Notes: generated from the letters alone by a model not told the origin. DNA of 41,884 nucleotides from an uncultured virus (IMG/VR IMGVR_UViG_2061766007_000262) (IMGVR_UViG_2061766007_000262); one strand, 5' to 3'. Numbered from the stretch's first letter, positions 1-39,296 are shown. Program-made: numbers and translations.

Positions 1-125
1 TTAACAAAGCCGTCATCATCAGCAACCATACCTAATTCATAATAGAGTAGTCTTGCCCCAATACTCATTTCTTGGAAGGCGTCGCTACCTACTATTTGAA
101 TATTAAACATTCTTTTTTTAGCCAT
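1..125 (-). CDS. Phage replication initiator / replisome organizer-like protein, N-terminal part (runs off window)
   Basis: Hand translation MAKKRMFNIQIVGSDAFQEMSIGARLLYYELGMVADDDGFV matches the MAxRRMF...SDAFxxM...LYxxLGMxADDDGFV N-terminus of Bacillota phage replication proteins; start overlaps the MTase stop. Confidence 0.8.
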   Translation of the reverse strand, partial: MAKKRMFNIQIVGSDAFQEMSIGARLLYYELGMVADDDGFV

Positions 126-1035
126 TTTCACTCCCTTCTTCTTCAAACAGGTTTAATATCATCTGCCCATTTTCTATTATTTTTTTCTCAATTTGTGTTA
201 AACCATTAACCCTATCTATCGCAATTTGATAAAAATCTGGGTTTAATTCAAAACCTATATAATGTCTTTTCAACTCTTTAGCTGCTACCGCTGTAGTTCC
301 GCTACCGATAAAGCAATCTAAAACAATATCGCCTTCGTTGCTTGAATTTATAACCAAATTCTTTATTATATCTAGTGGCTTAATTGTTGGGTGATCAAAC
401 ATATCTTTATCTGACACATTGCAGGCTGATAGATACCATTTTTTCTTTGTTTCAGTGGATCCATATAATCTGACGCCACTTTCTCTTGCGAAAACGCAGT
501 ATTCGGTATCACTTAGATATGTGTTATTACAAGTTGGAATGGGATTTGTTTTATGCCAAGCGAGTAGATCAATATTGCAATCTAAATCGTCAAAGTAATC
601 TATTAGTTGCCTTAGTTGATTTTTGTTACACCATACATAGATGTTTATCTTTTTCATCACTCTAACTAATTCATCTAATATTTCATTGCTAAAGCCCTTT
701 GAAATAAAGCTTGTATTTTCTCTATTATCAACACCATTAGCAATTATTCTTAACCTTTCGCTTTCTTCATCTTTGCCATGCTCTCTAACATAATCTAAGT
801 ATTTTTGCCTTTGAACACTAACACCTGAATCCACTGCTTTCTTAGTAATTTCAGTGTCTAAAGAATAAATGTTTCCTTTTTGTTTATATTTCCTTTTAGC
901 AATTTCGCTATGACCGTTTCCGCCCATAACAAATTCGTATGGTGGATCTATGATTACCAAATCTATACTTTTATCTGGAATTCTTTTTATTCCTTCATAG
1001 CAATCTTCGTTGTAAATAACATCTATTTCCATCAT
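118..1035 (-). CDS. DNA N6-adenine/N4-cytosine methyltransferase, beta class
   Basis: DPPY before HPTIKP and DCFIGSGTT; long insertion after DPPY. Confidence 0.93.
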   Translation of the reverse strand: MMEIDVIYNEDCYEGIKRIPDKSIDLVIIDPPYEFVMGGNGHSEIAKRKYKQKGNIYSLDTEITKKAVDSGVSVQRQKYLDYVREHGKDEESERLRIIANGVDNRENTSFISKGFSNEILDELVRVMKKINIYVWCNKNQLRQLIDYFDDLDCNIDLLAWHKTNPIPTCNNTYLSDTEYCVFARESGVRLYGSTETKKKWYLSACNVSDKDMFDHPTIKPLDIIKNLVINSSNEGDIVLDCFIGSGTTAVAAKELKRHYIGFELNPDFYQIAIDRVNGLTQIEKKIIENGQMILNLFEEEGSENG

Positions 1036-3433: not shown

Positions 3434-4120
3434 TTAAAACTCCTTTTTAATTACTGTTTTTGGTCTGTGTTTTTTATTGATATTGTTTTCAATAAAATCA
3501 ATTTCTTTTCCTTCAAGGTATTTGATGTGGTCAATTATGTCTTCTCTATGGATCCAATAATTCTTATCAACAGCGTAATCAAATACCCATTTTTTGGTTG
3601 TTTCATCATAAGTAAAATACTTAAGATGTGCTGTCAAGCATACTCCCTTTAAGTCTTCAATAACAACCATATAATGTAAGACTTGATAATAATATTGATC
3701 TGGTAGAATGTTAGATTCCCACATTTGCTTTGTAACACTGTTAATTAGTTCTACGTCTTTAACTTCTAAACCGAATAAATCAGCTCCGATGTAAAATAAG
3801 CCATCTGGTGTGCAAGTAAGTAGTGGGTAGTCTTTTCTTCTAAAGATCCAAAAGTTTCTTTTTGGTGGTCTTATAGTCTTAAATGACGAATGGTCTAATG
3901 ACCACAATTCTCTAATATGTTCTTCAGCTTTAGCACCTTCTTTCATTCGTTCGTTTTCTTTTATTATTTTTTCTTTATCAAAGACTATACGATTATATAC
4001 ATCATTAGACGAGAGCCATTTAGACATATTGACTATTGCTGCTGCGTCGCTACCACCAATTCCACGAGCTTTAAGCCAATCGTTTTTTGTCTTATAAATC
4101 TCTTTTTTGTAATTCTTCAT
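3434..4120 (-). CDS. YqaJ/lambda-exonuclease family alkaline exonuclease
   Basis: WLKARGIGGSDAAAI, CTPDG, LEVK, YYYQVLHYM motifs. Confidence 0.92.
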   Translation of the reverse strand: MKNYKKEIYKTKNDWLKARGIGGSDAAAIVNMSKWLSSNDVYNRIVFDKEKIIKENERMKEGAKAEEHIRELWSLDHSSFKTIRPPKRNFWIFRRKDYPLLTCTPDGLFYIGADLFGLEVKDVELINSVTKQMWESNILPDQYYYQVLHYMVVIEDLKGVCLTAHLKYFTYDETTKKWVFDYAVDKNYWIHREDIIDHIKYLEGKEIDFIENNINKKHRPKTVIKKEF

Positions 4121-4370
4121 TATCTACCACCAATCTTATGTTTTTAAGTTCTGCTTCAGCGGTTGTTCCGAAACATTGCAACACAGCATCTCTTTTTATA
4201 TACTGTTTGCCTAACGTTGTTCTGCCATTGTATAAATCTCTAGCCATATTCTTGATACGATAAGCTGTAGGTTTAGACTTAATGTTTTGGTTGAAATAAA
4301 ACATAATGTCAGAAACAGTCCAGACTGGTTGCATTAGAAGATCATATTTCTTTCTAATGTTTTCTTCCAT
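4092..4370 (-). CDS. Small DNA-binding protein (Cro/excisionase-like), first gene of the early operon
   Basis: ATG at 4370 follows AAAGGAGG; WTVSDIMFYF...KPTAYRIK helix-turn-helix-like; divergent from the repressor. Confidence 0.6.
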   Translation of the reverse strand: MEENIRKKYDLLMQPVWTVSDIMFYFNQNIKSKPTAYRIKNMARDLYNGRTTLGKQYIKRDAVLQCFGTTAEAELKNIRLVVDNEELQKRDL

Positions 4371-4382
4371 TTTTCCTCCTTT

Positions 4383-4401
4383 TACTTCCATTTTGGAAGC
4401 A
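4383..4401. promoter_or_regulatory. Palindromic putative repressor operator TACTTCCA-TTT-TGGAAGCA
   Basis: Inverted repeat in the genetic switch; related sites at 4445-4463, 4528-4546 and 12376-12394. Confidence 0.65.
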
Positions 4402-4443
4402 TATTGTTGTAAAAATAAAAAATAATTTTACTTTCTTAATTCA

Positions 4444-4471
4444 ATTATACCATTTTGATAGTAAAAAGCAA
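4444..4471 (-). promoter_or_regulatory. Leftward early (lytic) promoter
   Basis: TTGCTT-N16-TATAAT with extended -10 TG. Confidence 0.65.
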
Positions 4472-4529
4472 CATAATTTTTATATTTTTTTACAAATTTG
4501 ATAATTTTATTAAAAAATGGATTTGTTTA

Positions 4530-4558
4530 TTGACAAATTGGAAGCAATGATTTATTAT
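4530..4558 (+). promoter_or_regulatory. Repressor promoter
   Basis: TTGACA-N17-TATTAT, followed by RBS AAGGAG and ATG at 4585. Confidence 0.75.
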
Positions 4559-4584
4559 GTAAATAAAAAAGGAGATAGTGTATT

Positions 4585-5100
4585 ATGCCAAGAAATAATT
4601 TAAAAAAATTAAGAACTGATACCAGAATTTCTTTAAACAAATTAGAACAATATGTTAATATTTCTAATTCAAATTTGTCTTTAATTGAAAATGATAGAAG
4701 ACCACTACGATTAAAACACATTATTGAGTTATCTGCGTTTTTCAATGTTACTGCTGATTATTTATTAGGAAAGAGTGATACTGGAATTATTGTCTATAAC
4801 GAAGCTGGCGATGAGTTTGTTTTAAATGAAAATGAATATCACGATTTGATTGGCAAAATCAAAACAACTATTGTAGATTTAAAGGTTACAACCGATAGGA
4901 TTATTCTAGATAAGGATCAGGATTCTTATGTAGCAAAAACACAGTTTAGGGTTTATAGAGAGTTTTCTGAAAGGTTAAATGAGTTTGATTTAACACCAAT
5001 TCTTACTAATAAATTAAATAATCTAATCAAAAGAATGACATCTAAAGAGTTAGAAAAAACAATTAAGTTTGTTGAAGAATATATGCTGGATAGAAATTAA
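4585..5100 (+). CDS. XRE-family phage repressor
   Basis: N-terminal HTH LKKLR...ISNSNLSLIEND...FFNVTADYLLG; position between the switch and integrase. Confidence 0.88.
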   Translation: MPRNNLKKLRTDTRISLNKLEQYVNISNSNLSLIENDRRPLRLKHIIELSAFFNVTADYLLGKSDTGIIVYNEAGDEFVLNENEYHDLIGKIKTTIVDLKVTTDRIILDKDQDSYVAKTQFRVYREFSERLNEFDLTPILTNKLNNLIKRMTSKELEKTIKFVEEYMLDRN

Positions 5101-5128
5101 AAAAAGAGCAGTGCTACCAACACTGCTC
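5099..5128 (-). terminator. Rho-independent terminator oriented for a leftward transcript
   Basis: Stem GAGCAGTG/CACTGCTC with an A-tract on its left (U-tract on the minus strand). Confidence 0.65.
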
Positions 5129-5192
5129 AAGCATATAATTGAATTTACGTTAGAAAGGGATCAATCATAAGCTAAAGAGAAAATACTCTTTA
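5099..5192 (-). ncRNA. Candidate ~90-nt antisense sRNA
   Basis: Minus-strand promoter TTGTAA-N17-TATAAT (5198-5226), 5' hairpin GCTAAAGAG/CTCTTTAGC, terminator, and 15 nt complementary to the RBS of the 1435..2112 gene. Confidence 0.55.
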
Positions 5193-5225
5193 GCCATATT
5201 ATACAAAAAATATGGAGGAATTACA

Positions 5226-6368
5226 ATGCCAAAAAATACAAGCGGTAAGTTTCACAAAGAAGATAACGGAACTTGGACTATAGATACTAAGATAAAAGTC
5301 AACGATAGATGGGTTCATTTAAAAAAGAGAGGTTTTGCCACTTTGGGTGATGCTAAAGCAAAATATCACGAAATAGAGCAAGAGCACTACAATAAACAGA
5401 TAATTAAAGATAAAAACTATTCTATTGAAAAAATATATAACGAATATATCAAAAACAGATCCTACCAAATAAACTTTACTTCTCTTGAAAAAGATATATC
5501 ACTAATTAAATGTCATATTTTGCCTTATTACAGTAAAATTGCACCAGAAGAAATATTTACTCAAGAACAAACAGAAAAATGGTATCATTTTGTATTAGAT
5601 TCAACTTTATCAAGCACAAGAAAACAACAAATTGTTGCTAAAATGAAAGATATGTTAAAGTTTGCTTATACTCACAAATATATCAATGCCGAAATGTATC
5701 AAGATTGTGATGTAATACTTTTACCAGTATCTAGCAAAAAAGAAAGTAAAGTTGAAAGAGTAATATGGACTGCCGACGAAGAAAAGCAATTTCTAGCAGC
5801 AGTTAAAGATAAAGGCAATGATAAAGATTACTTATATTTTAAAATAATACTTAATACTGGTTTAAGAATGGGCGAATATTTAGGTCTTCAAGGGAAGTGT
5901 TTTGATCACGATAAACGAATACTTAAGATAGAACAACAAGTAGTCAATAAAGATGGTGATGGTTGGATCCTGACGACAAAGTTAAAAACAAGTGAAAGCT
6001 ACAGGAATGTCGTTTTGCCTGCTGATTTATGTGAAGAAATTGAAAGCTTTATTAAAGATTTCAATATAGGTAATGACGATTTTATTATATTTTCAACTAA
6101 CAAGAAAAAACCATTAAGCAGAACCGAATTCAGAAGAAGGTTAGAAAAGTATTGTGAACTAGCTAAAGTAAGAAAATTAAATCCGCATGCGTTAAGGCAT
6201 AATCAAGCAGTTAAACTCAGCAAAGTTTGTGTAACGATGGATGATATTGAAAACGCAGCTAAAAGATTAGGACACTCACCAAGTATGTTTGCTGATACTT
6301 ATGCTAAACATCAAAACGAGGTTAAACAGAACGAATTATTAGAAAGAATGTATAGGAACAATTGTTAA
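5226..6368 (+). CDS. int: Tyrosine integrase
   Basis: N-terminal arm-binding KRGFAT motif; TGLRMGE, LKT, HALRH, LGHS, DTYAK catalytic residues. Confidence 0.95.
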   Translation: MPKNTSGKFHKEDNGTWTIDTKIKVNDRWVHLKKRGFATLGDAKAKYHEIEQEHYNKQIIKDKNYSIEKIYNEYIKNRSYQINFTSLEKDISLIKCHILPYYSKIAPEEIFTQEQTEKWYHFVLDSTLSSTRKQQIVAKMKDMLKFAYTHKYINAEMYQDCDVILLPVSSKKESKVERVIWTADEEKQFLAAVKDKGNDKDYLYFKIILNTGLRMGEYLGLQGKCFDHDKRILKIEQQVVNKDGDGWILTTKLKTSESYRNVVLPADLCEEIESFIKDFNIGNDDFIIFSTNKKKPLSRTEFRRRLEKYCELAKVRKLNPHALRHNQAVKLSKVCVTMDDIENAAKRLGHSPSMFADTYAKHQNEVKQNELLERMYRNNC

Positions 6369-6675
6369 AGTTGTTCCTTTCTTTTTTAGCCAATTTTACC
6401 CCATTTTTTACCCCAGAGCATATAAAAAGGGCTATTTCTAGCCCTATTATTTGTAGTGGTCGGAAAAACAGGAAAAATGTTTATTTTATAATGATAGTAA
6501 TTATAGTTTAATTTGATAATAAAATTGACCATTTGTTTCAAACATTTTTTCAAAATGTAAATAATTTTATTACAAACTATAATCTTTATTTTTCTGGTTT
6601 TCCCCCAAAAACATTTTAGTAGCATTTCAACTACTTATAATATAGTAATATATTTTACTAAAATATGCAAATACA
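6369..6675. other. Putative attP region
   Basis: AT-rich non-coding gap after int with direct repeats TTTTACCCCA (6394-6403, 6406-6415) and TTTTCCCCCA (6598-6607) resembling arm-type sites. Confidence 0.6.
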
Positions 6676-9600
6676 TTAACTTAAAAAGTTATTGACTTTT
6701 TTGCTGCTTAGACCAAGACTTCTTAAATACCTTGATAGTTTCTCGTTATTGTCTTTGCTTCTATAACCAGCGAGATATAGTAATAGTAGTTTATCATTTC
6801 TGCTTAAACCAAGCCTATTAACATACGCAATTACAAGTTCTTTTCTTGTCTTGTTTTTGCTTTCAGTTATGCCACCAATCTTATCTAGATAATTAACAAA
6901 CCTTGAAATATTGATCCTACCATTTGAATAATAGAGCAAAGTTGATAGTTTGCTATCTGCCTTATCTAATTTGAGAACCTTTGCCTTAGCATAACTATAA
7001 TATGTATCATAGATTTTCTTGATCAATTTTGCTTTTTCTTCGCTTGTCTTATTTCTATAGTCAGTTAGTTGCATTAACTTTTCAACTTGTGCGTTAGCCT
7101 TATTATATTCGGTTTTAAACGCATTTATTTGCTCTTTAGTTAATTCTACTACATCGCCATTATCATTTGTGTAAGAAGTCATATATGCTTTTGGTAAAGC
7201 GTTATAACCGTCTTTCGTTAAGCTCAATAATTCATCTCTTACACTTTCACTGCTTTCAACTCTTGAAGCCATCACAAGTTCTAAATAACCTTTAGCTTTT
7301 CTTGTAAAGTTAGTTTGAGCAGCATCTTTATATTCTTTTAAAAGATAATTAGGACTGTAGCCTTTTATAAGTGCGTCAACTTTATAACCGTTAGGGCTAA
7401 AGTTTTTATAAGCACCAACCATATACTTATATAAATTATTAAATGGAATACCAGTTAAGTTAGCAATGATTAAAGCACCATCTCTGACAGCTTTAAGCCA
7501 ATCGCCATCATTTTCAATCGCATTCACAATATCTCTTAACACAACTACAAACTGGTTAATTACCGTTGTATCCATACCATTGATTTCTTGGTTGTAATCT
7601 ACAGCACTAATTATTGTAGAAACGTATGGCAAGTTATCAATTGTTGATTCCAACATAAGCGTTTTAATGAAGTCTTTAGCATCTTCTTCACCCCAGCTCC
7701 AGTCTTTCTTACCAAGCAATCTCTTTATTAACTCGTCAATTCCAGCGATAATCATACCACTTAGAAGAAGCGAAAGCATAAACTTTGTTGCTCTAGGTGC
7801 AATGCTTGTGTTAATTATTGTTTCTTTATCACTCTTAATGCTCTCAAGTTCTACCAACTTTTCTTTCTTATTATTAAGTTCTTCTAAAGTTTCGTCGTTT
7901 GGATCGCTTTGATATTTTCTTTCTAATTCAGCAATATCTGCTTTAGTCGTTTCTATCATCTTATTAACAGTAGGTAAAGTTGCTCTTGCAATTCTCTTTT
8001 CGTTTAATAAATTGTTGAGAATAGAAATCTTGTTTTGTAAATCAGATGAGAAGTAAGAAAGCACTTTTCTAATATAACCACCAGCACCTGAACGTGCCAT
8101 AGACTGTTTAACATCAATAGCATTTGATTGTGTGTTTGCAACTATTCTTTCAAGTATTCTAATTGGATCTTCGCCAGTTATTTTGCTTTCTTCAATTGCG
8201 GCACCATAAGCAAATGTAATAATAACAGCTTCATCCATTTTTTCCATTGGCACACCAAATATCTTTGAGAATTTATTAAGATATTCAGTTAATGCTGCTG
8301 CTTTTATTATGTCGTGATTAGACCATCTATCAGCTAACAAGCCACTTTTGCTCATTAAGTCTTGTTTGATCTTGTTATAATTTAAAACGTTGTGTGGTAT
8401 TTTAAAGAACGCCTTTAAGAATGATGCAAAATGAACTTCGTTTAATACAGTAGGCAGTGAAGCTGTTTGTTTTAAAACAACTGAAGCATTGCCATATAAA
8501 GTTGCTTGAACTAAGTTAGAAATACCTTTGCCGCTTAAAATATAATCATTTTTGCCGCCAATTCTTTCTATTAAGTAATTTATTATTGTGTAAAGTTCAT
8601 TAGATGTATTTTTAATTAAACTCTTTCTTGTTTCTGCCTTATTGTCTGAGTTCTTAGACCAACCATTGATAAACGATTCAAATCTTCTTACGCTGTCGCT
8701 CATTTCACCATATTTGGTTAGTGCGTTAACGTATGCGGCATTTCTATCAGTAAAGTTCATTCCTAATAAAGCCATGTGATAAGTCTTTTTTCTTTCTTTA
8801 TTGATAGCAGTGTTTTCAATATTGATTGTGCCATAATTTTGGCTTTCAATTGTTATATTTTTAGTATCGCTTTTATTAGACGGATAGTAATTATCATTAT
8901 AAAGTAATATTTCATAACCCTTAATATCAGCATCTTTCTTAGCTTTATAATCTCTATATTCGCCGTTATATAAGTTATCTAAAATATCTTCAGCAAAATC
9001 AGTGTATGTTTTGCCTAGTTTATTCTTAATTGTTTCAATATCGCTTTCGTTCAAAATGATATTGAACTTAGTTTTGCCATCATTATATCTATAGCCACCA
9101 TTGATTATAGTCCTATATGTTGCTTCAGTTAAAGTCATTGTATAAATATCAAGTAAAGTATCTATTGTTAATTTTAGATTTTTACCGCCAAGAGTAATTT
9201 CTACCTTTTTAGATAAATCTTTATCTTTAATATTATACTTTTCTTGTATCTCTTTGAAATCGTTGATAAACTCATATTGTTTTAATAAGTGTGCATTTCT
9301 AGAAGCGAATATATCCTCAAATAGAACTTTATTTACAGCACTATTGGATCCAAAGAAATTCTTGATTACAATATCTGGTGCTGATGTTCTATTTAATTCT
9401 CTTTGTAAGATATTTTCGTTTAAGAACACTCTTTCTTTGCTGCCATAGGTGTAATTCAATGCCCTAAGCTCTAAGTCAGCCTTATAGTTAGCTTTTTTGA
9501 CTGTTGTTTTTTCGCTATCAATCAAAACACCAAGTTCTTTATTAAGACTGCCAAGTAGTTTATAAACTGCTTCCATTGCTTGATAACTTAATGAACTACC

Positions 9601-12600
9601 TGTATTGTTTCTAGAACCTGCAACTAACTCGTTACCGACAATTAGGCTTCTGCTTGAACTACTGCTTCTATCATTAAGTAATAAACCTAATTCGTCCCTA
9701 TATCTTTCTATTAAAGATTCGCCTGTTGTTTCATCTCTTAGTGCTTGGAACCAAGAATATTTTTGCTCTAATTGATCCGCACTATAGTTAGATAAATCAT
9801 CATAAAGTGCAGTAGCAAAATCTCTTGAAATGCCAAGTTTTGATCTCGTAACAACATTTTTCCTGAATGAATTATTTATTAAATTCTTGTAGAATTGAAG
9901 TTGTGGAACGCCATCTAATTTTCTTGTTGTTCCGCTTGTCGTTTGTTTATCAAACTTATCTTTAATTTTGAAAATGTTTTGCTGTGCTTTAACTGTTGCG
10001 TAAGTAATAGCTTTTCTATTTCTAATTTCAAGTAAAGCGTCAGCCAATCTTGCTTTAAAATCATTGACAATGCTTTGAACTCTAGATGTTTTACTATTTG
10101 AAAGTAAACTTTCTGCCATTCGTTCAGCAAAATCATTGACAATATTTTCGCTATAAGTATTATTAGAGTTATAGTTTTTGAAATTGGCTGTGTCTAGCAA
10201 ATAATTACCATTCATTGCGTCAATAATTTCGCCTAATGTTTTGCCGCTTTCTTTATAGACACCATTTTCTTCAACTAATAGTTTAGCGTCAAACAATGAT
10301 TTAGCTAATTCCCTGAAATTAGTTCTAAGTTTGTCTATATCTTTTCTATTGTATTGAGTATTAAAATCTATTGTTAATTTTTCAGCAAGTTTGTTTACGT
10401 TTGTATGAACGAGCTTATAACCACTTTGTTGTGCAAAACCATCAAAGAAGTTTTGAAAATCAATTAAGAAGTCTTTAGATGTTTTATAACTTAAAACGTT
10501 TGTAGAATAAGCATTAGCATAATACTGAGATTCTCTAATTGATTTTGCCTTGTTATTTGAACTGGTTAGACTGAAATTAACTTTGTTATTATCTAGTTCG
10601 TTCCTAGATAGAACATCACTGCCCCTACTGTTAGATTCTCTGCTTTCAGAAGGTATATCATATCCTCTCTGTCTGCTTCCAGGACTTCCTGTCGTTTCTC
10701 TATTCCTAATTCTTTCATTTTCTTGTTGAAGGCTTCTTTCAACTCCTTCGTAGTCATCAATTCTATATTCTTTTCCATTGTATTCTACAACTCCTCCGTT
10801 GTTCAATATCTCTTTAACAGTGTTATCAATTAAATTTTTAAGCTTTAAACTATCGTTATCGTTGTGTATGTAATCAAGTGATACATATCGTCCTTTTTGT
10901 AAATATCTTACAAATGAACTACTTAATGATAATTCTTCGGATCCGCTTACATGTCGCCATACAACTTTATAGCCATTTTCTTTTGCCATTGAAACCCATT
11001 TAGCAATTGAAGATGCTTTTTTACCTACGAGAGGTATTGCGACGTTGTATCTATTCTTGAATAATCTATTAGACACATAGTCTTGTGCTTTTCCAACTAT
11101 TCCTTGAACAACACCAGCACCAGCACCATTGTTATAATATTTTTTAAGAGAATCAATGGTTTTAAAAATATCGTTATCGTTTTCAACAAAACCATCAACC
11201 TTAATCTTTTTATCAACACCTGTGCTTGACTTGCCAACACCTGGTAAACCAGTAACCATAAATAATTCAGGTTGATTTTCGGTAGAAACAGTTTTTTTAT
11301 TATCAATTATCTTATTAAAGGATTCATTAACAACTTTATTAAATAGAGTTTCAGACCATTGTGCCAAATCTTCTTTGTGATCCACAAGGTATTTTTCAGC
11401 GTCTTTATATGCTTGTAATTGGCTAATTCTTTCGTAATTAGGATATTCGCCAATTCCATCATTTCTAGCTTTCATATAGTCGTATATGAATTCTATTGTT
11501 GGGTTATCAAGCATATCAGCTTTGACCCAAGTTGATACGCCTTTTAAGTATGGGTTTTTGTTAATTTCAATAAGTTTCTTTTGGTTTTCTTCGGTCAATC
11601 TTGATGCTATATTTCTTAAATCACTGTTGTTGCCAATCTCTGGAATAATACTAAATTTTACAAATGAATGTTGATAATCAACTGCTTCATCATATTGATC
11701 CTTATTAAAGTGTTTAGTTTCAATGTTTTCGCCAGTATTAACCATAAAAGCAACTTGTGGCATATTGTGGTTTTCAGCAATATCATCGTGATCATATTCC
11801 ATATTGTAATCCATGATGGAAGCCGTTTTAAAACCAAAGATATTTGAATACATAGTATTTAAAGGTTGCTTAACTGACGCATAACAATCAAGTGTTTTTG
11901 CGTTATTTTTTACTATGTTTGAAATAGCTCTTAGCCAACCACTTTTACCGCTTACATTAAATACACTTATTAAATCGCCATCTTGTGTAATTGCAAAACC
12001 GCTCAGACCATCAATGCTTAAATAGTTGTTTGTATTTTCATAGTCTTCAACGCTATGTAAGTCAACTAATTCGCCATTCTTAAGATAAATTTTTGAAATT
12101 TCAAATATATCATGGAAGGTTTGTGCATCTACATCTTGATAGATACTATAATCATCGTTAAGCTTTAATAGCCCATAACCATAGCTAGAGATGCTGCTTT
12201 TGGATCTGAGAAAGTCTTTAAAAGTTGTGGAAAGTCTTTTTCGTAAAGTTTCATCAATCTCTTTGCTTCCTTGATGGAACAATTGTTGTTCTTGATTAGT
12301 GATTCTTCTACTTTCTTCTTGAATTCTTCTAAACTCATTTTCTACCTCTCTTATATCAATTTCATTATAATTTGGTGCTTCCAATTTGTCAATATTTTTA
12401 TTATTTTTTTCATATTTGATAATATTTTGACTATTTTTATTATTTTTTGAATCCAAACTCATTTTAATACTTGGATTACTTGTAGGTTTCTTATTATCAA
12501 TAGATTTAATTTGGTTAGACTCAAAAGCAATGTAAACTTTACCATAATTGTTCGTGTCTAATTCTGCACCATCATAACCTGTTATTTTGGTTATTGCTTC

Positions 12601-15237
12601 ATTAAACAAACTAACATCGTTAGCAGTTGATTGCAAATATTCAATTACTTCATAGTCAGTCTTACATTCTTGTTTAATTGCTTTGACAGCATTGTCTAAA
12701 TCAATTTTTTGTAATTTTTCTATTGAACTAACTAATTGCTTTATTTGGCTATCACTTATTGTTAATTTCTCTGTGTTAATAGGTTTAGTGATGTTAGCAT
12801 ACCCCCTTATGATGTTATCTCCACTTTGATAAGCCATATCATAAGATGTTGCTAAATATATACCCTTTATTTTAGCCTGAGTATTTTCGCCAATTTTCTT
12901 CTTATCAAATGTTGTAAACTTTGCATTACTGCCATGATACACAACTAATAAGTTTCCGTTTTCATCACGAACTTTACTATCTTTAAAATATTCTTGTTGT
13001 TCTTTTGATAGTTTGTTACCATCGGAATCAGTCATTGATAAAGAAAAACTAGCAGAATAATTTGGCGACCCAGTATTTTTTTTGTTATAATTATCAACTT
13101 CATTAGCTTGTGCTTTAATATTATCAAGAGCTAAATCAGCTAATTGCGTTTCTACAAGGTTTGTTAATGCTTTGATATAAGTTTTTTCAGATTTAACAAT
13201 GTCACCACGACCATTTTGAATTCTTTTAAATACAGATTCAAGATAGTGTTTTAGCTTAAATAAAGTAGGTCTATATGCTATGTCTTTTATAAGCTTTTTT
13301 GCGTCTGTAAAATTCTCCAACGTAAAAGCAAGAGTTTCGCTTTCTAGCAGTTCAGGGCTTATGGTTTTATTTCCTGAACCATTATCTGTGCCATATAATT
13401 CCCTTATATAATTTTCAGTGTTTTCCCATTGTGTTGGGTTTGCTTTTTTGATAACATCCGAAACCGCTTTTCTTAACTCAGGGTTTTGGTCAAAGAAACC
13501 ATGACTTAAATTTTCATGAACATATTTATTGAATAACTTATCAGAAAACTCTGAGCTTATAAAAGTTCTATTTCCAACAGTAAAAGCAGCGACACTAAAG
13601 TCGTTATTTTTAAATTTTTGTTTTTCTTCTTCTGTTAATTTTAGATTGTATTGTTTTTCAAATTCATCAACATTTTTTATTTCATTTTCAGTAATGATAT
13701 GTGTATTAAATTCTAAGCCAGTTGTTTTTCTAATTCCAGCATCAAACTCGCTTGCTAGGTTTTGTAAATTTGAATTTTGAATAGTTGTTTTTATGTGATT
13801 AAAAGTATTTTCGCCTTGTTCAGATTTCCAATAATCAACAGCAGTTTTGCCTTTAAAAAGCATGTTCATAAGGTTGTTGAAATGAACTGGATCATCTTCT
13901 CTGAACTTATCAAGATTTTCACAAAGCTCTTGCATTTCTTGTGCGTTTTTTTCGCCCAATTTTTGTAATCGCTTGTTTCTTGTTTCTTCGCTGATGTTCT
14001 TATTAAGCATTAGTTTATTGTATGCTTCTTGATTTTGGTAAATTTCGCCTATATTACCAAAGAATTGGTAACCTTCTGCACCAAGTTTATTATAAACTAT
14101 TGCGGTTTCGCCACCAGACATAATGCCGCCTGAAACAGCACCACCTGCGAAAGATAAGCCGACTTGTTTCCAATACGCAGGATCGGTGTAAATAAATCTA
14201 CCATTTTCACCTTTTAGAGCGTCTTCGCCTTCAACAATTGTGCTTGCCCAAGGTGCTAAGATCTCACTAAATACTTCTTCTGCACCTTCTTCAAACATTG
14301 ATTTAAGTATTTCTTTGCCTATACCCTTTTTAGTCGCACTTGCAAATGCTTTAGAACCATATTTAAGACCATTTACATTAGGTGTAAATTCGCCAATTAC
14401 TTTATTTAAGCCAGTAGCTTTGGAAATACCATTAAGTATTTTACCTGTTACAAGTTCTGAAGCAACTTCTATAGCAGCATTAGCAGTTCCGTAAGCAGCA
14501 GATTTGCCTACATCATCAGTTTTCTTATATGTTTCATTATAACCAGTTGCAAAAGATCCAGTTCCCATTACGCCTAAAGATACTGCTTGTGCAGCAGTGC
14601 TTGAACCACCAGTTAAAACACCAGCTATAATTGATGGAAGCATAAAACCAATGCTTTCTTCTACGCCAGTCATAAAGTTATTTACGCCTTGTGCTTCACT
14701 TAACCAGTTTGATTCATTAACAATTTTGTCTAAATATTCTTTTGATTCTTCAATACTATTGAATGATTGAACCCAATTTTCAAAATCAAGAGTTGGTATT
14801 GTTCCTAGAACATTTATTGCATTTGTTCCATAAGTAACCCAGTCATAATCTCTTGCTTCTCTTGCCCATTCTGCATCATGACCGCTGCTAGCGTCCACAA
14901 TATTAAAAAAGAGATCGCCAAGCGAATCAAAGAAATTTAATAAACCCCTTGTTACATTTATGCCAGCTGCTGCTATAGTATCAGAAGTTCTTTTCCAGTA
15001 GTCCATAACACCTTGTGGTGTATTATCTTTTTCTTCAGTAGGATCCGCTGTGTTTCTTGTTTCTAAATCAGTCTTAATCTTAGCTAGGCTGGTTAAATCA
15101 TAAGCGTTTATGTAATCGCTATAATCGTTTGTGTAATCAATATCATTAGGATTAACGAAAGAGTCATAACTAGATGACTCTCTTTTTCTCTGTAACATAT
15201 CTCTTAGGTATTTAAGTTGTTCTTGTGAATTAGCCAT
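6676..15237 (-). CDS. Giant polyvalent virion/ejection-type protein with metallopeptidase-like, ART-like, GNAT-like and zeta-like P-loop kinase modules
   Basis: 2853 aa; Gly/Ala-rich hydrophobic N-terminal helices; HENLSH (13501-13518); VYHGS..GIYLA..GYDG..AFESNQIKS; GFAITQDGDLISVF..TLDCY..FGFK; GLPGVGKS (11227-11250). Confidence 0.8.
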   Translation of the reverse strand: MANSQEQLKYLRDMLQRKRESSSYDSFVNPNDIDYTNDYSDYINAYDLTSLAKIKTDLETRNTADPTEEKDNTPQGVMDYWKRTSDTIAAAGINVTRGLLNFFDSLGDLFFNIVDASSGHDAEWAREARDYDWVTYGTNAINVLGTIPTLDFENWVQSFNSIEESKEYLDKIVNESNWLSEAQGVNNFMTGVEESIGFMLPSIIAGVLTGGSSTAAQAVSLGVMGTGSFATGYNETYKKTDDVGKSAAYGTANAAIEVASELVTGKILNGISKATGLNKVIGEFTPNVNGLKYGSKAFASATKKGIGKEILKSMFEEGAEEVFSEILAPWASTIVEGEDALKGENGRFIYTDPAYWKQVGLSFAGGAVSGGIMSGGETAIVYNKLGAEGYQFFGNIGEIYQNQEAYNKLMLNKNISEETRNKRLQKLGEKNAQEMQELCENLDKFREDDPVHFNNLMNMLFKGKTAVDYWKSEQGENTFNHIKTTIQNSNLQNLASEFDAGIRKTTGLEFNTHIITENEIKNVDEFEKQYNLKLTEEEKQKFKNNDFSVAAFTVGNRTFISSEFSDKLFNKYVHENLSHGFFDQNPELRKAVSDVIKKANPTQWENTENYIRELYGTDNGSGNKTISPELLESETLAFTLENFTDAKKLIKDIAYRPTLFKLKHYLESVFKRIQNGRGDIVKSEKTYIKALTNLVETQLADLALDNIKAQANEVDNYNKKNTGSPNYSASFSLSMTDSDGNKLSKEQQEYFKDSKVRDENGNLLVVYHGSNAKFTTFDKKKIGENTQAKIKGIYLATSYDMAYQSGDNIIRGYANITKPINTEKLTISDSQIKQLVSSIEKLQKIDLDNAVKAIKQECKTDYEVIEYLQSTANDVSLFNEAITKITGYDGAELDTNNYGKVYIAFESNQIKSIDNKKPTSNPSIKMSLDSKNNKNSQNIIKYEKNNKNIDKLEAPNYNEIDIREVENEFRRIQEESRRITNQEQQLFHQGSKEIDETLRKRLSTTFKDFLRSKSSISSYGYGLLKLNDDYSIYQDVDAQTFHDIFEISKIYLKNGELVDLHSVEDYENTNNYLSIDGLSGFAITQDGDLISVFNVSGKSGWLRAISNIVKNNAKTLDCYASVKQPLNTMYSNIFGFKTASIMDYNMEYDHDDIAENHNMPQVAFMVNTGENIETKHFNKDQYDEAVDYQHSFVKFSIIPEIGNNSDLRNIASRLTEENQKKLIEINKNPYLKGVSTWVKADMLDNPTIEFIYDYMKARNDGIGEYPNYERISQLQAYKDAEKYLVDHKEDLAQWSETLFNKVVNESFNKIIDNKKTVSTENQPELFMVTGLPGVGKSSTGVDKKIKVDGFVENDNDIFKTIDSLKKYYNNGAGAGVVQGIVGKAQDYVSNRLFKNRYNVAIPLVGKKASSIAKWVSMAKENGYKVVWRHVSGSEELSLSSSFVRYLQKGRYVSLDYIHNDNDSLKLKNLIDNTVKEILNNGGVVEYNGKEYRIDDYEGVERSLQQENERIRNRETTGSPGSRQRGYDIPSESRESNSRGSDVLSRNELDNNKVNFSLTSSNNKAKSIRESQYYANAYSTNVLSYKTSKDFLIDFQNFFDGFAQQSGYKLVHTNVNKLAEKLTIDFNTQYNRKDIDKLRTNFRELAKSLFDAKLLVEENGVYKESGKTLGEIIDAMNGNYLLDTANFKNYNSNNTYSENIVNDFAERMAESLLSNSKTSRVQSIVNDFKARLADALLEIRNRKAITYATVKAQQNIFKIKDKFDKQTTSGTTRKLDGVPQLQFYKNLINNSFRKNVVTRSKLGISRDFATALYDDLSNYSADQLEQKYSWFQALRDETTGESLIERYRDELGLLLNDRSSSSSRSLIVGNELVAGSRNNTGSSLSYQAMEAVYKLLGSLNKELGVLIDSEKTTVKKANYKADLELRALNYTYGSKERVFLNENILQRELNRTSAPDIVIKNFFGSNSAVNKVLFEDIFASRNAHLLKQYEFINDFKEIQEKYNIKDKDLSKKVEITLGGKNLKLTIDTLLDIYTMTLTEATYRTIINGGYRYNDGKTKFNIILNESDIETIKNKLGKTYTDFAEDILDNLYNGEYRDYKAKKDADIKGYEILLYNDNYYPSNKSDTKNITIESQNYGTINIENTAINKERKKTYHMALLGMNFTDRNAAYVNALTKYGEMSDSVRRFESFINGWSKNSDNKAETRKSLIKNTSNELYTIINYLIERIGGKNDYILSGKGISNLVQATLYGNASVVLKQTASLPTVLNEVHFASFLKAFFKIPHNVLNYNKIKQDLMSKSGLLADRWSNHDIIKAAALTEYLNKFSKIFGVPMEKMDEAVIITFAYGAAIEESKITGEDPIRILERIVANTQSNAIDVKQSMARSGAGGYIRKVLSYFSSDLQNKISILNNLLNEKRIARATLPTVNKMIETTKADIAELERKYQSDPNDETLEELNNKKEKLVELESIKSDKETIINTSIAPRATKFMLSLLLSGMIIAGIDELIKRLLGKKDWSWGEEDAKDFIKTLMLESTIDNLPYVSTIISAVDYNQEINGMDTTVINQFVVVLRDIVNAIENDGDWLKAVRDGALIIANLTGIPFNNLYKYMVGAYKNFSPNGYKVDALIKGYSPNYLLKEYKDAAQTNFTRKAKGYLELVMASRVESSESVRDELLSLTKDGYNALPKAYMTSYTNDNGDVVELTKEQINAFKTEYNKANAQVEKLMQLTDYRNKTSEEKAKLIKKIYDTYYSYAKAKVLKLDKADSKLSTLLYYSNGRINISRFVNYLDKIGGITESKNKTRKELVIAYVNRLGLSRNDKLLLLYLAGYRSKDNNEKLSRYLRSLGLSSKKVNNFLS
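10593..10778 (-). CDS. Nested +1-frame small helical ORF after the zeta-like domain (candidate antitoxin)
   Basis: 61 aa (54 from ATG 10757); GGAGGAG at 10791-10797; host frame becomes R/S/G/E-rich over this interval. Confidence 0.55.
   Translation of the reverse strand: MEKNIELMTTKELKEAFNKKMKELGIEKRQEVLEADREDMIYLLKAENLTVGAVMFYLGTN
12165..12338 (-). CDS. Nested +1-frame 57-aa ORF before the GNAT-like domain (candidate antitoxin/immunity)
   Basis: MSLEEFKKKVEESLIKNNNCSIKEAKRLMKLYEKDFPQLLKTFSDPKAASLAMVMGY; RBS GAGAGGT 5 nt before ATG; consensus promoter directly upstream. Confidence 0.75.
   Translation of the reverse strand: MSLEEFKKKVEESLIKNNNCSIKEAKRLMKLYEKDFPQLLKTFSDPKAASLAMVMGY
12364..12394 (-). 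promoter_or_regulatory. Internal consensus sigma70 promoter with operator-like site inside the giant ORF
   Basis: TTGACA (12392-12387) N17 TATAAT (12369-12364) with an A-rich UP-like tract; 19 bp identical to 4528-4546. Confidence 0.8.
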
Positions 15238-15250
15238 ATAATACCTCTAA

Positions 15251-16366
15251 TTATTTTACTTTTTTAAGTGTCGCTCCACCTGCCGCAGTGCTATCTATCG
15301 TATATTTGTTACCATTTTTATCATATACATAAGTTCTACTTTCGTAGTCTGTGTATGGAACAGTTCTTGTTTGTTGTTCACCGTTTTCATCTGTGTAAGT
15401 TTCTGTTCTTGTTTTTTGAACAGCTTCAGTATGTGTTTCCTTGTGCAAGCCTAAATCAGAATATCTATTGAATAGGTTAAGAATTGCGTCATCATCCTTC
15501 TTAGTTTTTACAGACCCTTCCACCATTCTAACCTTATCTTTTTGGTCTTTAATTACGAGAGATAAATAGTCGTTGTTAGCACTTAACCAAATATCACCTT
15601 TCTTATGTTGTTGTGCTTCCATATCAATTTGTTGCTGGTTGATTTTGTTAGGATATAGAGTGTATTTAGCACCCATTTCCCATTCAGTTGTTTTGCCAGA
15701 CTCGTCTTTAACATTAAAATTGAAATTTATACCGCTACCATTTTTAAATTGAACAACATCTGTCCCATTTTGGAATACTTTTTCATTGTCAATTTCAATG
15801 CCATATTTTTCAATTTCTTCTTGTTTTTTAGCTTCAATTTCTTGTTGTTCTGCAAGAAAATTTTTATATGCCTCAGTTGTATTCATATAATGGGTTTGAA
15901 GATCTAATCTATCTTGCTCATTAAATTTTGAGTTGCTAAAGTCTGCTTCATCGCCATTAAAAGTTACGCCATAGTTGCTTAATACTCGCTTATAAGCATC
16001 TTTGTCCCAAGATTTTATTTTTCCGTTTTCATCATACGAATATGTCCCTTCTAAATAGCCAAGTGCGTTATTACCATTTCCAGATATACTGTCTTGATAG
16101 TCAGCATATTCATCTCTGTCATATTGGTTCATTCTTTGTAAATGTGCGTTATTAGCATCTGCTAAAGCATTTCTATAACTGTTTTCAATACCTAAAGCAG
16201 TTGATTGAGCCACGCCTTGATTAGCATAACCAGTTTGATTTAACTGATTTTGCGTGTATTTCATAGCGTTTTGCTTTGCTACACTTGCTTGTATTTCAGA
16301 GTTTAGTAAAGTTCTATAACTATCTTGTCGCATATTTTCATATAATTTTTCACTGTCTTGAGCCAT
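15251..16366 (-). CDS. Putative DNA pilot/ejection (internal virion) protein
   Basis: Q/N/A-rich helical N-terminus (QLNQTGYANQGVAQST); immediately precedes the giant protein. Confidence 0.45.
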   Translation of the reverse strand: MAQDSEKLYENMRQDSYRTLLNSEIQASVAKQNAMKYTQNQLNQTGYANQGVAQSTALGIENSYRNALADANNAHLQRMNQYDRDEYADYQDSISGNGNNALGYLEGTYSYDENGKIKSWDKDAYKRVLSNYGVTFNGDEADFSNSKFNEQDRLDLQTHYMNTTEAYKNFLAEQQEIEAKKQEEIEKYGIEIDNEKVFQNGTDVVQFKNGSGINFNFNVKDESGKTTEWEMGAKYTLYPNKINQQQIDMEAQQHKKGDIWLSANNDYLSLVIKDQKDKVRMVEGSVKTKKDDDAILNLFNRYSDLGLHKETHTEAVQKTRTETYTDENGEQQTRTVPYTDYESRTYVYDKNGNKYTIDSTAAGGATLKKVK

Positions 16367-19710: not shown

Positions 19711-20289
19711 CTATTCTCCTTTAATTTGATTATCATCTAACCAATTATAAATAAATGTTAAAATTTCATTAGTTGTAATTCCAAAATCACTTAAACCTTT
19801 TGGAACTTTAGTCATTTGTTTTTTACATATATTATTTATTAAGTTTATATCGCAATTCATACTAACTTGTATTGCTTCGTAAGACCATTTAAAATCTGGC
19901 GATAAATTATAACTATGACCACTGCATACTTTATAACCATCAATTAAAATATCATTATGATTTAATTCAACGTTTAAACCTTTTTCTTTTAAGAAATTAG
20001 CTATATCTTGAAGCATAGTAGATAGCATAAATTTATGATATTTTTGATTATTATAAATCCACACTAATGCTATATTGCCTTCAAAATGAACGATAGTCCC
20101 ACCATCTCTATTCATATTATAATATGGTATATTATGCTGATCACAGTATTCTGTATTAACATCATTTTCCCAACCAAATGAAACTTCGGTTTGTTGTGAG
20201 ATACCTATTTCAAAATGTTCTATTCTATTTTGAATATAATATGATTGTTTGTCATACCAACTTTTTATTGTAGTTTTTAATTCTTCCAT
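19711..20289 (-). CDS. Lipoate-protein ligase (BPL/LplA/LipB family)-like catalytic core
   Basis: SFG...VNTEYC..HNIP...RDGGTIVHFEGNI and NDILIDGYKVCSG resemble LplA RRxSGGGxVxHDxGN and NDIxxxGxKxxG motifs. Confidence 0.7.
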   Translation of the reverse strand: MEELKTTIKSWYDKQSYYIQNRIEHFEIGISQQTEVSFGWENDVNTEYCDQHNIPYYNMNRDGGTIVHFEGNIALVWIYNNQKYHKFMLSTMLQDIANFLKEKGLNVELNHNDILIDGYKVCSGHSYNLSPDFKWSYEAIQVSMNCDINLINNICKKQMTKVPKGLSDFGITTNEILTFIYNWLDDNQIKGE

Positions 20290-39232: not shown

Positions 39233-39296
39233 CTTCCTTGTTAACAATATCGCCAAATAGTTCTTGGGCACCTTTCACATTCAAGTTAGCCTCTAC
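39219..39296 (-). CDS. 3' end of the gene upstream of terL (possibly terminase small subunit)
   Basis: Open frame VEANLNVKGAQELFGDIVNKEDETE* from the gap, overlapping the terL start. Confidence 0.5.
   Translation of the reverse strand, partial: VEANLNVKGAQELFGDIVNKEDETE

Follow-up and report, generated by a model that had tools for sequence, protein, structure and literature searches.

A probable overlapping gene in a phage polyvalent-protein gene, with its own promoter and a 19-mer in common with the repressor promoter

Comparison with relatives indicates that the short ORF in the +1 frame of a giant polyvalent-protein gene is a genuine overlapping gene, and the sigma-70-type promoter ahead of it is identical over 19 nt to part of the repressor-gene promoter of the same phage. 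The window, meaning the whole stretch of DNA analysed, comprises 41,884 nucleotides from an uncultured virus. In our full explanation, an overlapping gene with its own promoter carries a 19-mer bound by a phage regulator and encodes a small protein that is perhaps a partner of the adjacent GNAT domain; we hold this to be somewhat better than an even prospect. The features are collected in the table.

Table. Features of the switch region and of the polyvalent-protein gene
Feature	Position	Strand	Details
First gene of leftward early operon, 92 aa	4092..4370	-	ATG at 4370, AGGAGG site
Palindrome, putative full operator	4383..4401	.	Perfect arms CTTCCA-TTT-TGGAAG at 4385-4399; carries TTGGAAGCA
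Leftward early promoter	4444..4471	-	TTGCTT, 16 nt, TGgTATAAT (extended -10); inferred by sequence reading
19-mer copy 1, putative operator	4528..4546	+	TTGACA at 4530-4535 plus first 11 nt of repressor-promoter spacer
-10 hexamer TATTAT, repressor-gene promoter	4553..4558	+	11/12 consensus, 17-nt spacer
Repressor-like XRE/HTH_3 protein, 171 aa	4585..5100	+	HTH_3 E 2.7e-7; integrase next on same strand
Tyrosine integrase	5226..6368	+	Phage_integrase E 4.5e-20
Polyvalent protein gene, 2853 aa	6676..15237	-	Last large gene of leftward late operon
Zeta_toxin-like kinase domain	10861..11307	-	aa 1311-1459, E 1.6e-9
GNAT-fold acetyltransferase domain	11650..12174	-	aa 1022-1196; pLDDT 91.5; begins at nested-gene end
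Nested gene, 57 aa + stop	12165..12338	-	+1 frame of giant ORF, giant codons 967-1024; four-helix protein
Ribosome-binding site GAGAGG	12345..12350	-	6 nt upstream of nested ATG; sequence reading
Internal sigma-70-type promoter TTGACA-17-TATAAT	12364..12392	-	12/12 consensus; within giant ORF coding sequence
19-mer copy 2	12376..12394	-	-35 hexamer and first spacer part of internal promoter; giant frame reads I-D-K-L-E-A
ART-PolyVal ADP-ribosyltransferase domain	12481..12966	-	aa 758-919, E 5.8e-22

The window has the phage context of terminase, integrase, and RecT genes (Pfam). The ORF that hosts the nested gene had been described as late and structural. It does belong to the leftward late operon, but its product is a polyvalent effector and not simply a structural protein: ART-PolyVal and Zeta_toxin by Pfam and GNAT by fold occur on one phage polypeptide. 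For the GNAT-fold domain, the top Foldseek matches listed are N-acetyltransferases, mostly named as GNAT family (best E 9.6e-5). In the fold search the domain resembles RimL, RimJ, NAGS, and SpeG-type enzymes, with no specific likeness to the tRNA-acetylating toxins. Upstream of the overlap, the 22 relatives carry different domains (ART, UvrD-C, kinase, PBECR3, LPD3, or none found). Downstream, all aligned relatives have GNAT, and its genetic linkage to the nested gene is equally constant; this is the linkage looked for in toxin-immunity pairs, and it rests partly on the retrieval of the relatives with queries that included GNAT.

At the switch region, the 171-aa protein matches phrog_8 and phrog_3 (transcriptional regulator/repressor) as well as the ICEBs1 Xre-family regulator 7t8i (E 6e-5). 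Family searches with the 92-aa early protein found no family, and a Cro-like role for it is suggested by its position only. As the original prediction stated, the 19-mer TATTGACAAATTGGAAGCA is found identically at 4528-4546 (+) and 12394-12376 (-), the only matches in the window at up to 3 mismatches; two matches arose in 0 of 100 shuffles, for which the expectation was 0.07. Both copies contain a TTGACA -35 hexamer placed 17 nt upstream of the -10, and the two promoters have a common layout, in which the 19-mer is followed after 37-38 nt by an ATG preceded by a ribosome-binding site. When the internal promoter was aligned locally to the whole window, its best non-self match was the repressor promoter, with a score of 42 that 0 of 60 shuffles reached.

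The 9-base core TTGGAAGCA has 3 copies in the window versus 0.43 expected, and none of 100 shuffles reached 3. All sit on promoter elements or in the early leader: two occupy the -35/spacer of the 19-mer promoters, with an identical offset relative to the -35 hexamer, and the third lies within the 15-bp perfect palindrome of the switch region, 130-145 bp away. CANNNTGGAAG occurs 6 times in the window versus 0.83 expected, with 4 of the 6 at the proposed sites. The predicted alignment of the 19-mer with this palindrome was borne out, its CTTCCA/TGGAAG arms being perfect and TTGGAAGCA common to both. The 19-mer copies differ from it by 3 mismatches each, all in the left arm (TTGACA versus CTTCCA, 3/6), and have one good half-site each, TGGAAG(CA) being perfect at 4528-4546. 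The looser site proposed over the early promoter (4463-4445, minus strand) is present and overlaps the spacer and -10 of that promoter, but it agrees with the palindrome at only ~11/19 positions and alone is not above chance. Judged by sequence, the element common to the internal promoter, the repressor promoter, and the switch palindrome is non-random and looks as an operator would; regulator binding to the 19-mer is a plausible, putative reading.

The internal promoter is the top promoter match in 3500-16000. A promoter matching at least 10 of 12 positions was found upstream of the nested start in 13 of the 35 entries scored, 5 of them perfect, and about two thirds of the relatives have no recognisable promoter or Shine-Dalgarno sequence there. 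Perfect or near-perfect promoters lie in the same place and frame register in L001, L002, L004, L005, L006, L031, L032, L035, L037, and L042, including contigs with a GC content as high as 48-53%. G002 has its internal -35 hexamer inside a 21-bp palindrome (9/10 pairs). The internal promoter is ancestral in a subgroup of relatives, one of them a complete phage in which neither an integrase nor an HTH_3 gene was detected, and it therefore did not originate as part of the present lysogeny switch; only about 10 spacer bases are specific to the present phage. The proposed wiring of the gene into the switch is supported only in part.

The most serious alternative accepts the nested gene and its promoter as real and denies that the 19-mer is an operator. 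The -35 region would then be a favoured context (TATTGACAAA) to which no regulator binds, the other ~9 identical bases would have come from a short recombination or gene-conversion patch or from drift, and the palindrome would be an RNA hairpin. Several observations fit: TTGACAA(A/T) is an ancestral feature of the internal promoters in relatives, ATATTGACAAA is not confined to these sites in the window, and each 19-mer site has a single good half-site. On the + strand the palindrome was scored as a terminator-like site. It belongs to the 5' leader of the leftward early transcript, where 4 nt separate it from the AGGAGG ribosome-binding site downstream, and it could instead work as a hairpin there. 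Furthermore, the complete 45-kb relative G001 has the internal promoter and no second promoter copy genome-wide (best score 27). The excess of TTGGAAGCA and CANNNTGGAAG, with the former at one -35 offset in both promoters and its third copy in a perfect palindrome, argues against this alternative, as does an analogous link between the internal promoter and the switch in G006. We consider it possible but rather unlikely.

Co-variation of internal sites with the switch among relatives had been suggested as a check, and the outcome was mixed. For the complete temperate relative G006, a genome-wide comparison with its internal promoter gave the best match at the early cro-side promoter of its own switch (36/45 columns identical, score 39; 0 of 60 shuffles, shuffled maximum 37), part of this similarity being generic promoter consensus in A-rich DNA. 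Since the look-alike is an early lytic promoter and not the repressor promoter, the wiring differs between phages. G001 and the incomplete relatives, by contrast, yielded no second copy of the internal promoter. No integrase or HTH_3 gene was detected in G001, indicating that a lysogeny switch is not needed for the promoter. The same repressor was found at 0 loci in viral contigs and at one locus, with 27% identity, in metagenome contigs. As no relative in the collections searched has the same repressor, the operator reading is a plausible one only.

The nested gene with its own promoter, the remaining element of the original prediction, was upheld by the relatives. All 22 of the 22 IMG/VR relatives keep the +1 frame open between the same boundaries, and an ATG stands at the aligned start in all but L018, which has AGG there and an ATG 9 codons upstream. 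The ORF is also found in 18 of 19 MAG loci, the site being outside the locus coverage in L049. Codon-position entropy over the overlap (34 sequences) was 1.129/1.129/1.409 in the nested phase and 1.393/1.141/1.169 in the giant phase, and in no bootstrap resample did the third position of the giant frame exceed the first. The GNAT control region showed a normal pattern in the giant frame (0.778/0.631/1.315). Purifying selection over the overlap is thus seen in the nested frame, with no wobble signature of the giant frame there. After synonymous re-coding of the nested peptide, the giant frame stayed open in 0.2% of trials on average, and in the reverse test the nested frame did so in 8% on average; both frames are open in 26/26 real sequences. 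Over the overlap, the giant frame looks like a low-constraint linker that is kept open, with the constraint carried by the nested frame. Conserved boundaries, selection in the alternative frame, and the maintenance of both frames against chance stops are together what is expected of an overlapping gene.

A profile built from 19 nested peptides retrieved 256 clusters from public protein sets at E<=1e-3, 74 of them at E<=1e-10. Family members are mostly 54-75 aa long and start at the domain or a few residues before it. AlphaFold2, given 130 family members, predicted four helices with pLDDT 97.4 and pTM 0.82. L037 carries a second, standalone copy of the nested gene with a promoter and a AAAGGAGGG ribosome-binding site, beside which the giant frame and GNAT are decayed. 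Searches with the nested protein found no family or fold match and no detectable DNA-binding fold, and no functional name was found among the family members looked up. The small domain also occurs at the C-terminus of other proteins, as in P0016 (466 aa; DarT at 243-409, small domain at 409-466). Such a position, in one case behind DarT, fits an adaptor as well as an inhibitor role.

The small domain might alternatively be the C-terminal end of a truncated polyvalent isoform, produced by +1 ribosomal frameshifting just before codon 967 and consisting of ART plus the small domain, with its end at 12165. This would suit a domain that almost always ends at the C-terminus in the profile search and that follows other domains in the same frame in a few proteins (P0016 with DarT; P0019, P0144, and P0111). 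However, in the window the nested frame is closed by stop codons that lie 2 and 5 codons ahead of the ATG, that ATG is kept in 21/22 viral relatives, and no conserved slippery sequence precedes it among the aligned relatives. A promoter and ribosome-binding site lie ahead of the nested start in many relatives, and the standalone L037 copy and the length and start points of the family likewise make frameshifting improbable. Still less credible is the view that the ORF is a non-functional by-product mirroring giant-frame constraint and its promoter a chance match in AT-rich DNA: although alternative-frame ORFs of 50-75 aa are common in the giant gene (6 on the same strand) and the promoter scan overall gave 64 sites versus 61 in shuffled sequence, it is already contradicted by the breadth of the family with its in-frame C-terminal and standalone forms, the fold prediction, the L037 copy, a codon-position signature that favours the nested and not the giant frame, and perfect 12/12 promoters recurring at the same position in contigs of 28-48% GC.

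Returning to the overlapping gene under putative regulator control, we propose the following picture. The linker that leads into the GNAT domain encodes, in its +1 frame, a compact four-helix protein of 57 aa, and the small gene has a consensus sigma-70 promoter and a ribosome-binding site of its own within the giant coding sequence. Having both, the nested protein can be made independently of, and before, the late-expressed effector, a possibility that the comparison of relatives supports. The 19 nt that the internal -35/spacer has in common with the repressor promoter include the half-site TGGAAGCA of the switch palindrome, and a phage regulator, most likely the 171-aa HTH repressor, may bind there. 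The regulation of the small gene would then match that of the repressor gene, with expression in the lysogen and the same autoregulation. Our leading guess, a speculative one, is a partnership between the small protein and the adjacent GNAT domain. Equally speculatively, the small protein may act as an inhibitor or 'immunity' factor that precedes production of the effector or is already there when a related one is injected.

A more specific version, in which the nested protein is the dedicated antidote of an injected GNAT effector and its promoter is tuned to the lysis-lysogeny regulators of each phage, is advanced as a tentative and unlikely proposal. If it were true, the toxin domain and its immunity protein would occupy two frames and be inseparable by recombination, the codons of the effector would themselves spell the promoter that drives the antidote, and a lysogen or early-infected cell would already be protected from its own effector and those of superinfecting kin. 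The small number of phage-specific changes in the promoter spacer, ~10 bases, suggests that effector-associated genes may be pluggable into a lysogeny switch.

Polyvalent proteins have been proposed as packaged, injected effectors, and a GNAT family described among them typically adjoins ART within one polypeptide (Iyer et al. 2017, PMC5512222). The present protein resembles those described there in being a giant multidomain protein with ART-PolyVal, GNAT, and Zeta-like kinase domains; the main text of that paper makes no mention of a second-frame gene that lies in the ART-GNAT linker and has a promoter of its own. The nested gene would give polyvalent effectors a new component bearing on their regulation and self-protection. 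To our knowledge, a gene embedded in a larger same-strand ORF goes unreported by gene callers, which makes the nested family invisible in ordinary phage annotation.

In GNAT toxin-antitoxin pairs such as TacAT and AtaRT, the antitoxins are DNA-binding proteins encoded by separate, non-overprinted genes. As in those pairs, the small ORF here directly precedes a GNAT domain of a conflict system and is linked to it in translation; unlike those antitoxin genes, it is overprinted, and its protein has no detectable DNA-binding fold. Prophage morons are genes with their own promoters within or beside the late region that are potentially expressed from the prophage. The nested gene resembles these in having its own promoter near the attachment-site end of the prophage and in its potential prophage expression, but it is overprinted on a resident gene and not inserted, and it is conserved with the GNAT module instead of sporadic. 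A moron identity was rejected, as no terminator-like site was found on the minus strand between 12165 and 6445 to accompany the promoter.

Some systems of the CI/Cro type have an additional operator beyond the intergenic region, as in lactococcal phage TP901-1. Here too, a motif, fully dyad-symmetric in one copy, is repeated in a divergent-promoter region where it overlaps promoter elements, with a further copy at a distance. The present case differs in that a late gene contains the distant copy, at a remove of 7.8 kb and on the -35 of the promoter of an unrelated small gene, and in that 2 of the 3 putative copies are half-palindromic. Lambda Rz1, a small gene that brings its own start and ribosome-binding site, is wholly embedded in the +1 frame of Rz. 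The nested gene likewise fits completely into a larger gene in that frame, has a start and ribosome-binding site of its own, and shows conservation across diverse phages. It differs in that its product is a predicted soluble four-helix domain that is standalone or fused elsewhere, that the host gene encodes an effector and spans 8.6 kb, and that the overlap falls in an interdomain linker, with a full sigma-70 promoter encoded as host amino acids (I/V-D-K ... Y-N). It would thus represent clean, widely conserved dual coding in DNA phages, in which the overprinted frame is constrained and the host frame is a linker.

The window, from a bovine gut metagenome, appears to be a temperate phage or prophage. 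Its 2853-aa giant ORF lies at the end of the late operon, as the original prediction of a late structural ORF implied, but it is not simply structural, since it carries ART-PolyVal, GNAT and Zeta_toxin-like domains. Between the first and the last of these, residues 1022-1196 gave a predicted fold with a pLDDT of 91.5, and the top matches listed in a fold search were N-acetyltransferases, most of them named GNAT family. This combination of domains makes the giant ORF a polyvalent protein as Iyer et al. 2017 (PMC5512222) use the term. Two further regions drew attention. A 192-aa protein among the late and structural genes matched LplA-B_cat (lipoyl ligase A/B catalytic domain, E 2.3e-13), which is unusual at such a position. 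Two ORFs matched N6_N4 DNA methylase; the 153-aa ORF on the plus strand covers only profile positions 79-220, the C-terminal part, and may be split or truncated.

Features of the window discussed in the text
Feature	Position	Strand	Content
Leftward early operon		-	YqaJ, DUF1351, RecT, methylase
Switch region	about 4370-4585		
Rightward genes		+	171-aa HTH_3 repressor-like gene, integrase
Leftward late operon	terminase at 39271 down to 2853-aa ORF 6676-15237	-	
ART-PolyVal domain of giant ORF	aa 758-919		
Zeta_toxin-like domain of giant ORF	aa 1311-1459		
Nested ORF	12165-12338	-	57 aa
Repressor-gene promoter		+	TTGACA, 17 bases, TATTAT; 11/12 consensus
Internal promoter	12364-12392	-	TTGACA, 17 bases, TATAAT; 12/12 consensus
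Leftward early promoter		-	TTGCTT, 16 nt, TGgTATAAT; read from sequence
19-mer, first copy	4528-4546	+	TATTGACAAATTGGAAGCA
19-mer, second copy	12376-12394	-	TATTGACAAATTGGAAGCA
Palindrome	4383-4401		arms CTTCCA-TTT-TGGAAG
Looser site	4463-4445		
LplA-B_cat match	19711-20289	-	192 aa
N6_N4 DNA methylase match	118-1035	-	
N6_N4 DNA methylase match	40216-40677	+	153 aa

The nested ORF occupies the +1 frame of giant codons 967-1024, within a linker rich in N and K that follows the ART domain, and its end coincides exactly with the beginning of the GNAT domain. Related loci were collected from viral contigs (22 loci) and from MAGs of gut Firmicutes (19 loci). The +1 frame is open, with start and stop positions unchanged, in all 22 viral loci, and 21 of them have ATG at the aligned start; the exception, L018, has AGG there and an ATG nine codons upstream. 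Eighteen of the 19 MAG loci also have an open frame, the remaining one (L049) stopping short of the site. The open frame persists down to about 25-30% peptide identity, and the codon alignment displays synonymous variation in the nested frame, such as CCA/CCG/CCC and GGA/GGT/GGG.

Codon-position entropy was calculated over the overlap for 34 sequences, after removal of exact or near duplicates (L003, L007, L010, L039, L047, L048) and of L018, L049 and the second copy in L037. The values were 1.129/1.129/1.409 in the nested phase and 1.393/1.141/1.169 in the giant phase, so that the highest variability in the giant frame does not fall on the wobble position (bootstrap P = 0). As a control in the giant frame, the GNAT region next to the overlap gave the normal pattern (0.778/0.631/1.315). 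When the nested peptides were re-coded with local codon usage, on average 0.2% of trials (0-2.9%) kept the giant frame open, against 26/26 real sequences. In the reverse test, which re-coded the giant-frame peptide, an average of 8% (0.4-29%) kept the nested frame open, and here too all 26 real sequences have it open. Both frames are maintained. The entropy and re-coding results therefore indicate that the constrained product is the small protein and that this stretch of the giant protein serves as a read-through linker.

Searching 1.84 billion representative proteins with a profile built from 19 nested peptides recovered 256 clusters at E<=1e-3, 74 of them at E<=1e-10. Most members are 54-75 aa long, and the domain end coincides with the C-terminus in nearly all. 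AlphaFold2, supplied with a 130-member family alignment, predicted four helices (pLDDT 97.4, pTM 0.82). The conserved open frame, the nested-phase entropy pattern and the 256-cluster family bear out the proposal of a gene within the larger ORF, and this comparative evidence indicates that the nested ORF is a real gene. A few database proteins carry the small domain in frame behind other domains. Among the proteins retrieved, the 466-aa P0016 has a DarT ADP-ribosyltransferase domain followed by the small domain, and a search for its locus gave none; the 120-aa P0002 contains two tandem copies.

The MAG locus L037 is a natural experiment on the small gene outside an intact giant frame. It has a second, standalone copy (L037:15122-15340) downstream of the giant ORF, which has a promoter-like site of its own as well as a strong ribosome-binding site, AAAGGAGGG; beside this copy the giant frame contains stops and the GNAT domain is truncated. 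This second copy looks like an orphan cassette. Two other loci depart from the usual arrangement. At L032:5491-6504 a separate ORF of 337 codons makes up the GNAT module; it contains the nested gene and has a glycine-rich motif, GSGNWGHKGRPGKVGGS, at its N-terminus. In the MAG locus L041 (8100-8200) the upstream polyvalent part and the GNAT part lie in different frames, and the change of frame adjoins an A-run just before the nested gene, the cause being a frameshift or else an assembly error. A shift of -1 leading out of the nested frame to GNAT was considered and dropped, as no conserved slippery site was found at the nested stop.

We surveyed domains in the 450 aa upstream of the overlap in 22 relatives. 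UvrD_C_2 was found in six, PBECR3 in two, and ART-PolyVal with LPD3, Kinase-PolyVal with SprT, and LPD3 alone in one each; no domain was found in the other 11. The downstream GNAT domain was always present and highly conserved (55% mean column identity over 30 sequences), the relatives having been found with GNAT-containing queries. The upstream domain thus varies while the GNAT domain is constant, which defines the unit as overlap plus GNAT, with the qualification that GNAT was among the retrieval queries.

A promoter matching at least 10 of 12 consensus positions precedes the nested start in 13 of the 35 entries scored, and in five it is perfect, even in contigs of 48% GC (L002, L005). In 11 of the 13 the -10 hexamer ends 25-50 nt before the nested start, and in most of those 11 the hexamers lie in one giant-frame register, xTT-GAC-Axx and TAT-AAT, reading I/V-D/A/E-K/N ... 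Y-N in the giant protein; the promoters of L006 and L042 are offset from it by one base. The spacers vary from phage to phage. About two thirds of the relatives, mostly larger contigs, have no recognisable promoter or Shine-Dalgarno site upstream. G001, a complete 45-kb relative with terminal repeats, has the internal promoter, and in it no integrase and no HTH_3 gene were detected. The internal promoter predates the switch of the window phage.

In the window, the internal promoter is the top consensus match of a promoter scan over 3500-16000. The expected identity between the repressor-gene and nested-gene promoters was confirmed: the 19-mer occurs twice, with no further copy at up to 3 mismatches, against 0.07 matches expected from shuffles, and none of 100 shuffles gave two. 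Both copies contain the TTGACA hexamer, and both promoters share a layout in which the 19-mer lies 37-38 nt from the ATG and a ribosome-binding site precedes the ATG. The predicted palindrome is likewise real, with perfect arms and a half-site in common with the 19-mers. The looser site proposed over the early promoter does overlap that promoter's spacer and -10, but it is not significant taken alone. The 9-mer TTGGAAGCA has exactly three copies in the window, in the palindrome and the two 19-mers (0.43 expected; 0/100 shuffles reach three), and CANNNTGGAAG has six against 0.83 expected, four of them at the palindrome, 19-mer or proposed sites. Two near-palindromes resembling the switch palindrome with 2 mismatches each (12266-12280 and 11808-11822), one of them within the nested ORF and 112 bp from the internal promoter site, were set aside as not significant (3 matches against 1.05 expected; 8/100 shuffles reach 3).

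The balance tips slightly towards reading the 19-mer as a putative operator. This reading is favoured because the 19-mer and TTGGAAGCA statistics beat shuffles, because in each of two promoters the 19-mer falls on the -35 hexamer and the spacer, and because the perfect palindrome of the early leader has the same half-site. It is weakened because the 19-mer has one good half-site only. That the 171-aa protein is the binder is a tentative assignment, to which we give somewhat less than an even chance. The operator reading gains further from gapped alignment across the whole window, which places the internal promoter's best non-self match at the repressor promoter with a score of 42 (38 was the highest among shuffles, 0/60 reaching 42).

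Relatives bear on the operator reading in both directions. One complete temperate relative, G006, carries an integrase and an HTH_3 repressor together with a divergent DUF739 cro-like gene; across its entire 55.7 kb, its internal promoter is matched best by the early promoter of that phage's switch region (36/45 columns identical, score 39; shuffled maximum 37, 0/60 shuffles reaching 39). This case also counts against the reading, because the partner is the lytic-side and not the repressor promoter and the similarity is partly generic promoter consensus. In G002 the internal -35 hexamer falls within a 21-bp palindrome with 9/10 pairs (L002:9935-9955), which appears operator-like. Against the reading, genome-wide gapped alignment of G001 found no second copy of the internal promoter (best score 27), and the incomplete relatives have none either; the own switch region is thus the best match in one of the two complete relatives. 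An ungapped search of the relatives for second copies found none (best 17/21) and had overlooked the G006 match later found by gapped alignment. BLAST of the L035 promoter across the MAGs yielded nothing beyond a 20-nt match within coding sequence. The switch of G006 also contains a perfect 11-nt inverted repeat, CAAACATTTTT / AAAAATGTTTG (L068:6352-6362 and 6509-6519), overlapping the repressor-promoter spacer and the cro-like start codon, which is a candidate operator pair of that phage.

Viral contigs gave no locus for the repressor protein, and metagenome contigs gave a single one, at 27% identity; no relative with the window's repressor was found in these collections. At the DNA level, neither region had a match among 50,697 phage records. 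In viral contigs, an exact 17-mer scan returned 16 stretches, which we take as chance because every one is in unrelated sequence and has no resemblance to the promoters of the window. A variant of the window phage at about 99%, from contigs of another study (four runs compared), spans both 19-mer sites and is uninformative on co-variation because it is too close. The differences listed for this variant include a cluster of small insertions at 12015-12055, a GNAT-domain loop region that is length-variable among relatives as well.

Taken together, the alignments and the structure prediction show a small protein, predicted to be folded, encoded in the +1 frame of the pre-GNAT linker, and in a subgroup of relatives a nested gene with its own predicted sigma-70 promoter. 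No fold or family match in Pfam, PHROGs, PDB, BFVD or ESM Atlas assigned a function to the protein. Pfam and PHROGs gave nothing above noise, Foldseek against the PDB a best E of 4.8, VIA-align wide a best Z of 5.6 to RuvA domain III, in the generic small-helical range, BFVD a best E of 0.24 to an uncharacterised protein, and ESM Atlas no usable match; a look-up of the family clusters yielded "hypothetical protein" as the only name. The internal promoter of the window carries the -35 and spacer element of the repressor promoter, so that the nested gene would be active in the lysogen and come under the regulation that governs the repressor gene. Speculatively, the small protein might act as a partner of the GNAT domain. 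One such role would be inhibition, with the small protein already there ahead of synthesis of the late effector, or when a related effector is injected. The orphan copy beside a decayed GNAT in L037 resembles an orphan immunity gene, and the C-terminal fusions to other domains agree just as well with a role in docking or as an adaptor.

Precedents exist for each single element: overprinted phage genes, promoters located in coding sequence, remote operators and polyvalent proteins. A conserved overprinted family tied to a polyvalent GNAT module, with a promoter spelled in the codons of the host protein, turned up neither in full-text literature searches nor in the main text of PMC5512222, and these sources gave no account of any gene nested within polyvalent proteins. 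The window differs from the polyvalent proteins of that main text in the gene nested in its giant ORF, and it resembles them in domain content: Iyer et al. 2017 describe a GNAT family as typically neighbouring an ART domain (PMC5512222), and GNAT lies near ART in the giant ORF of the window too.
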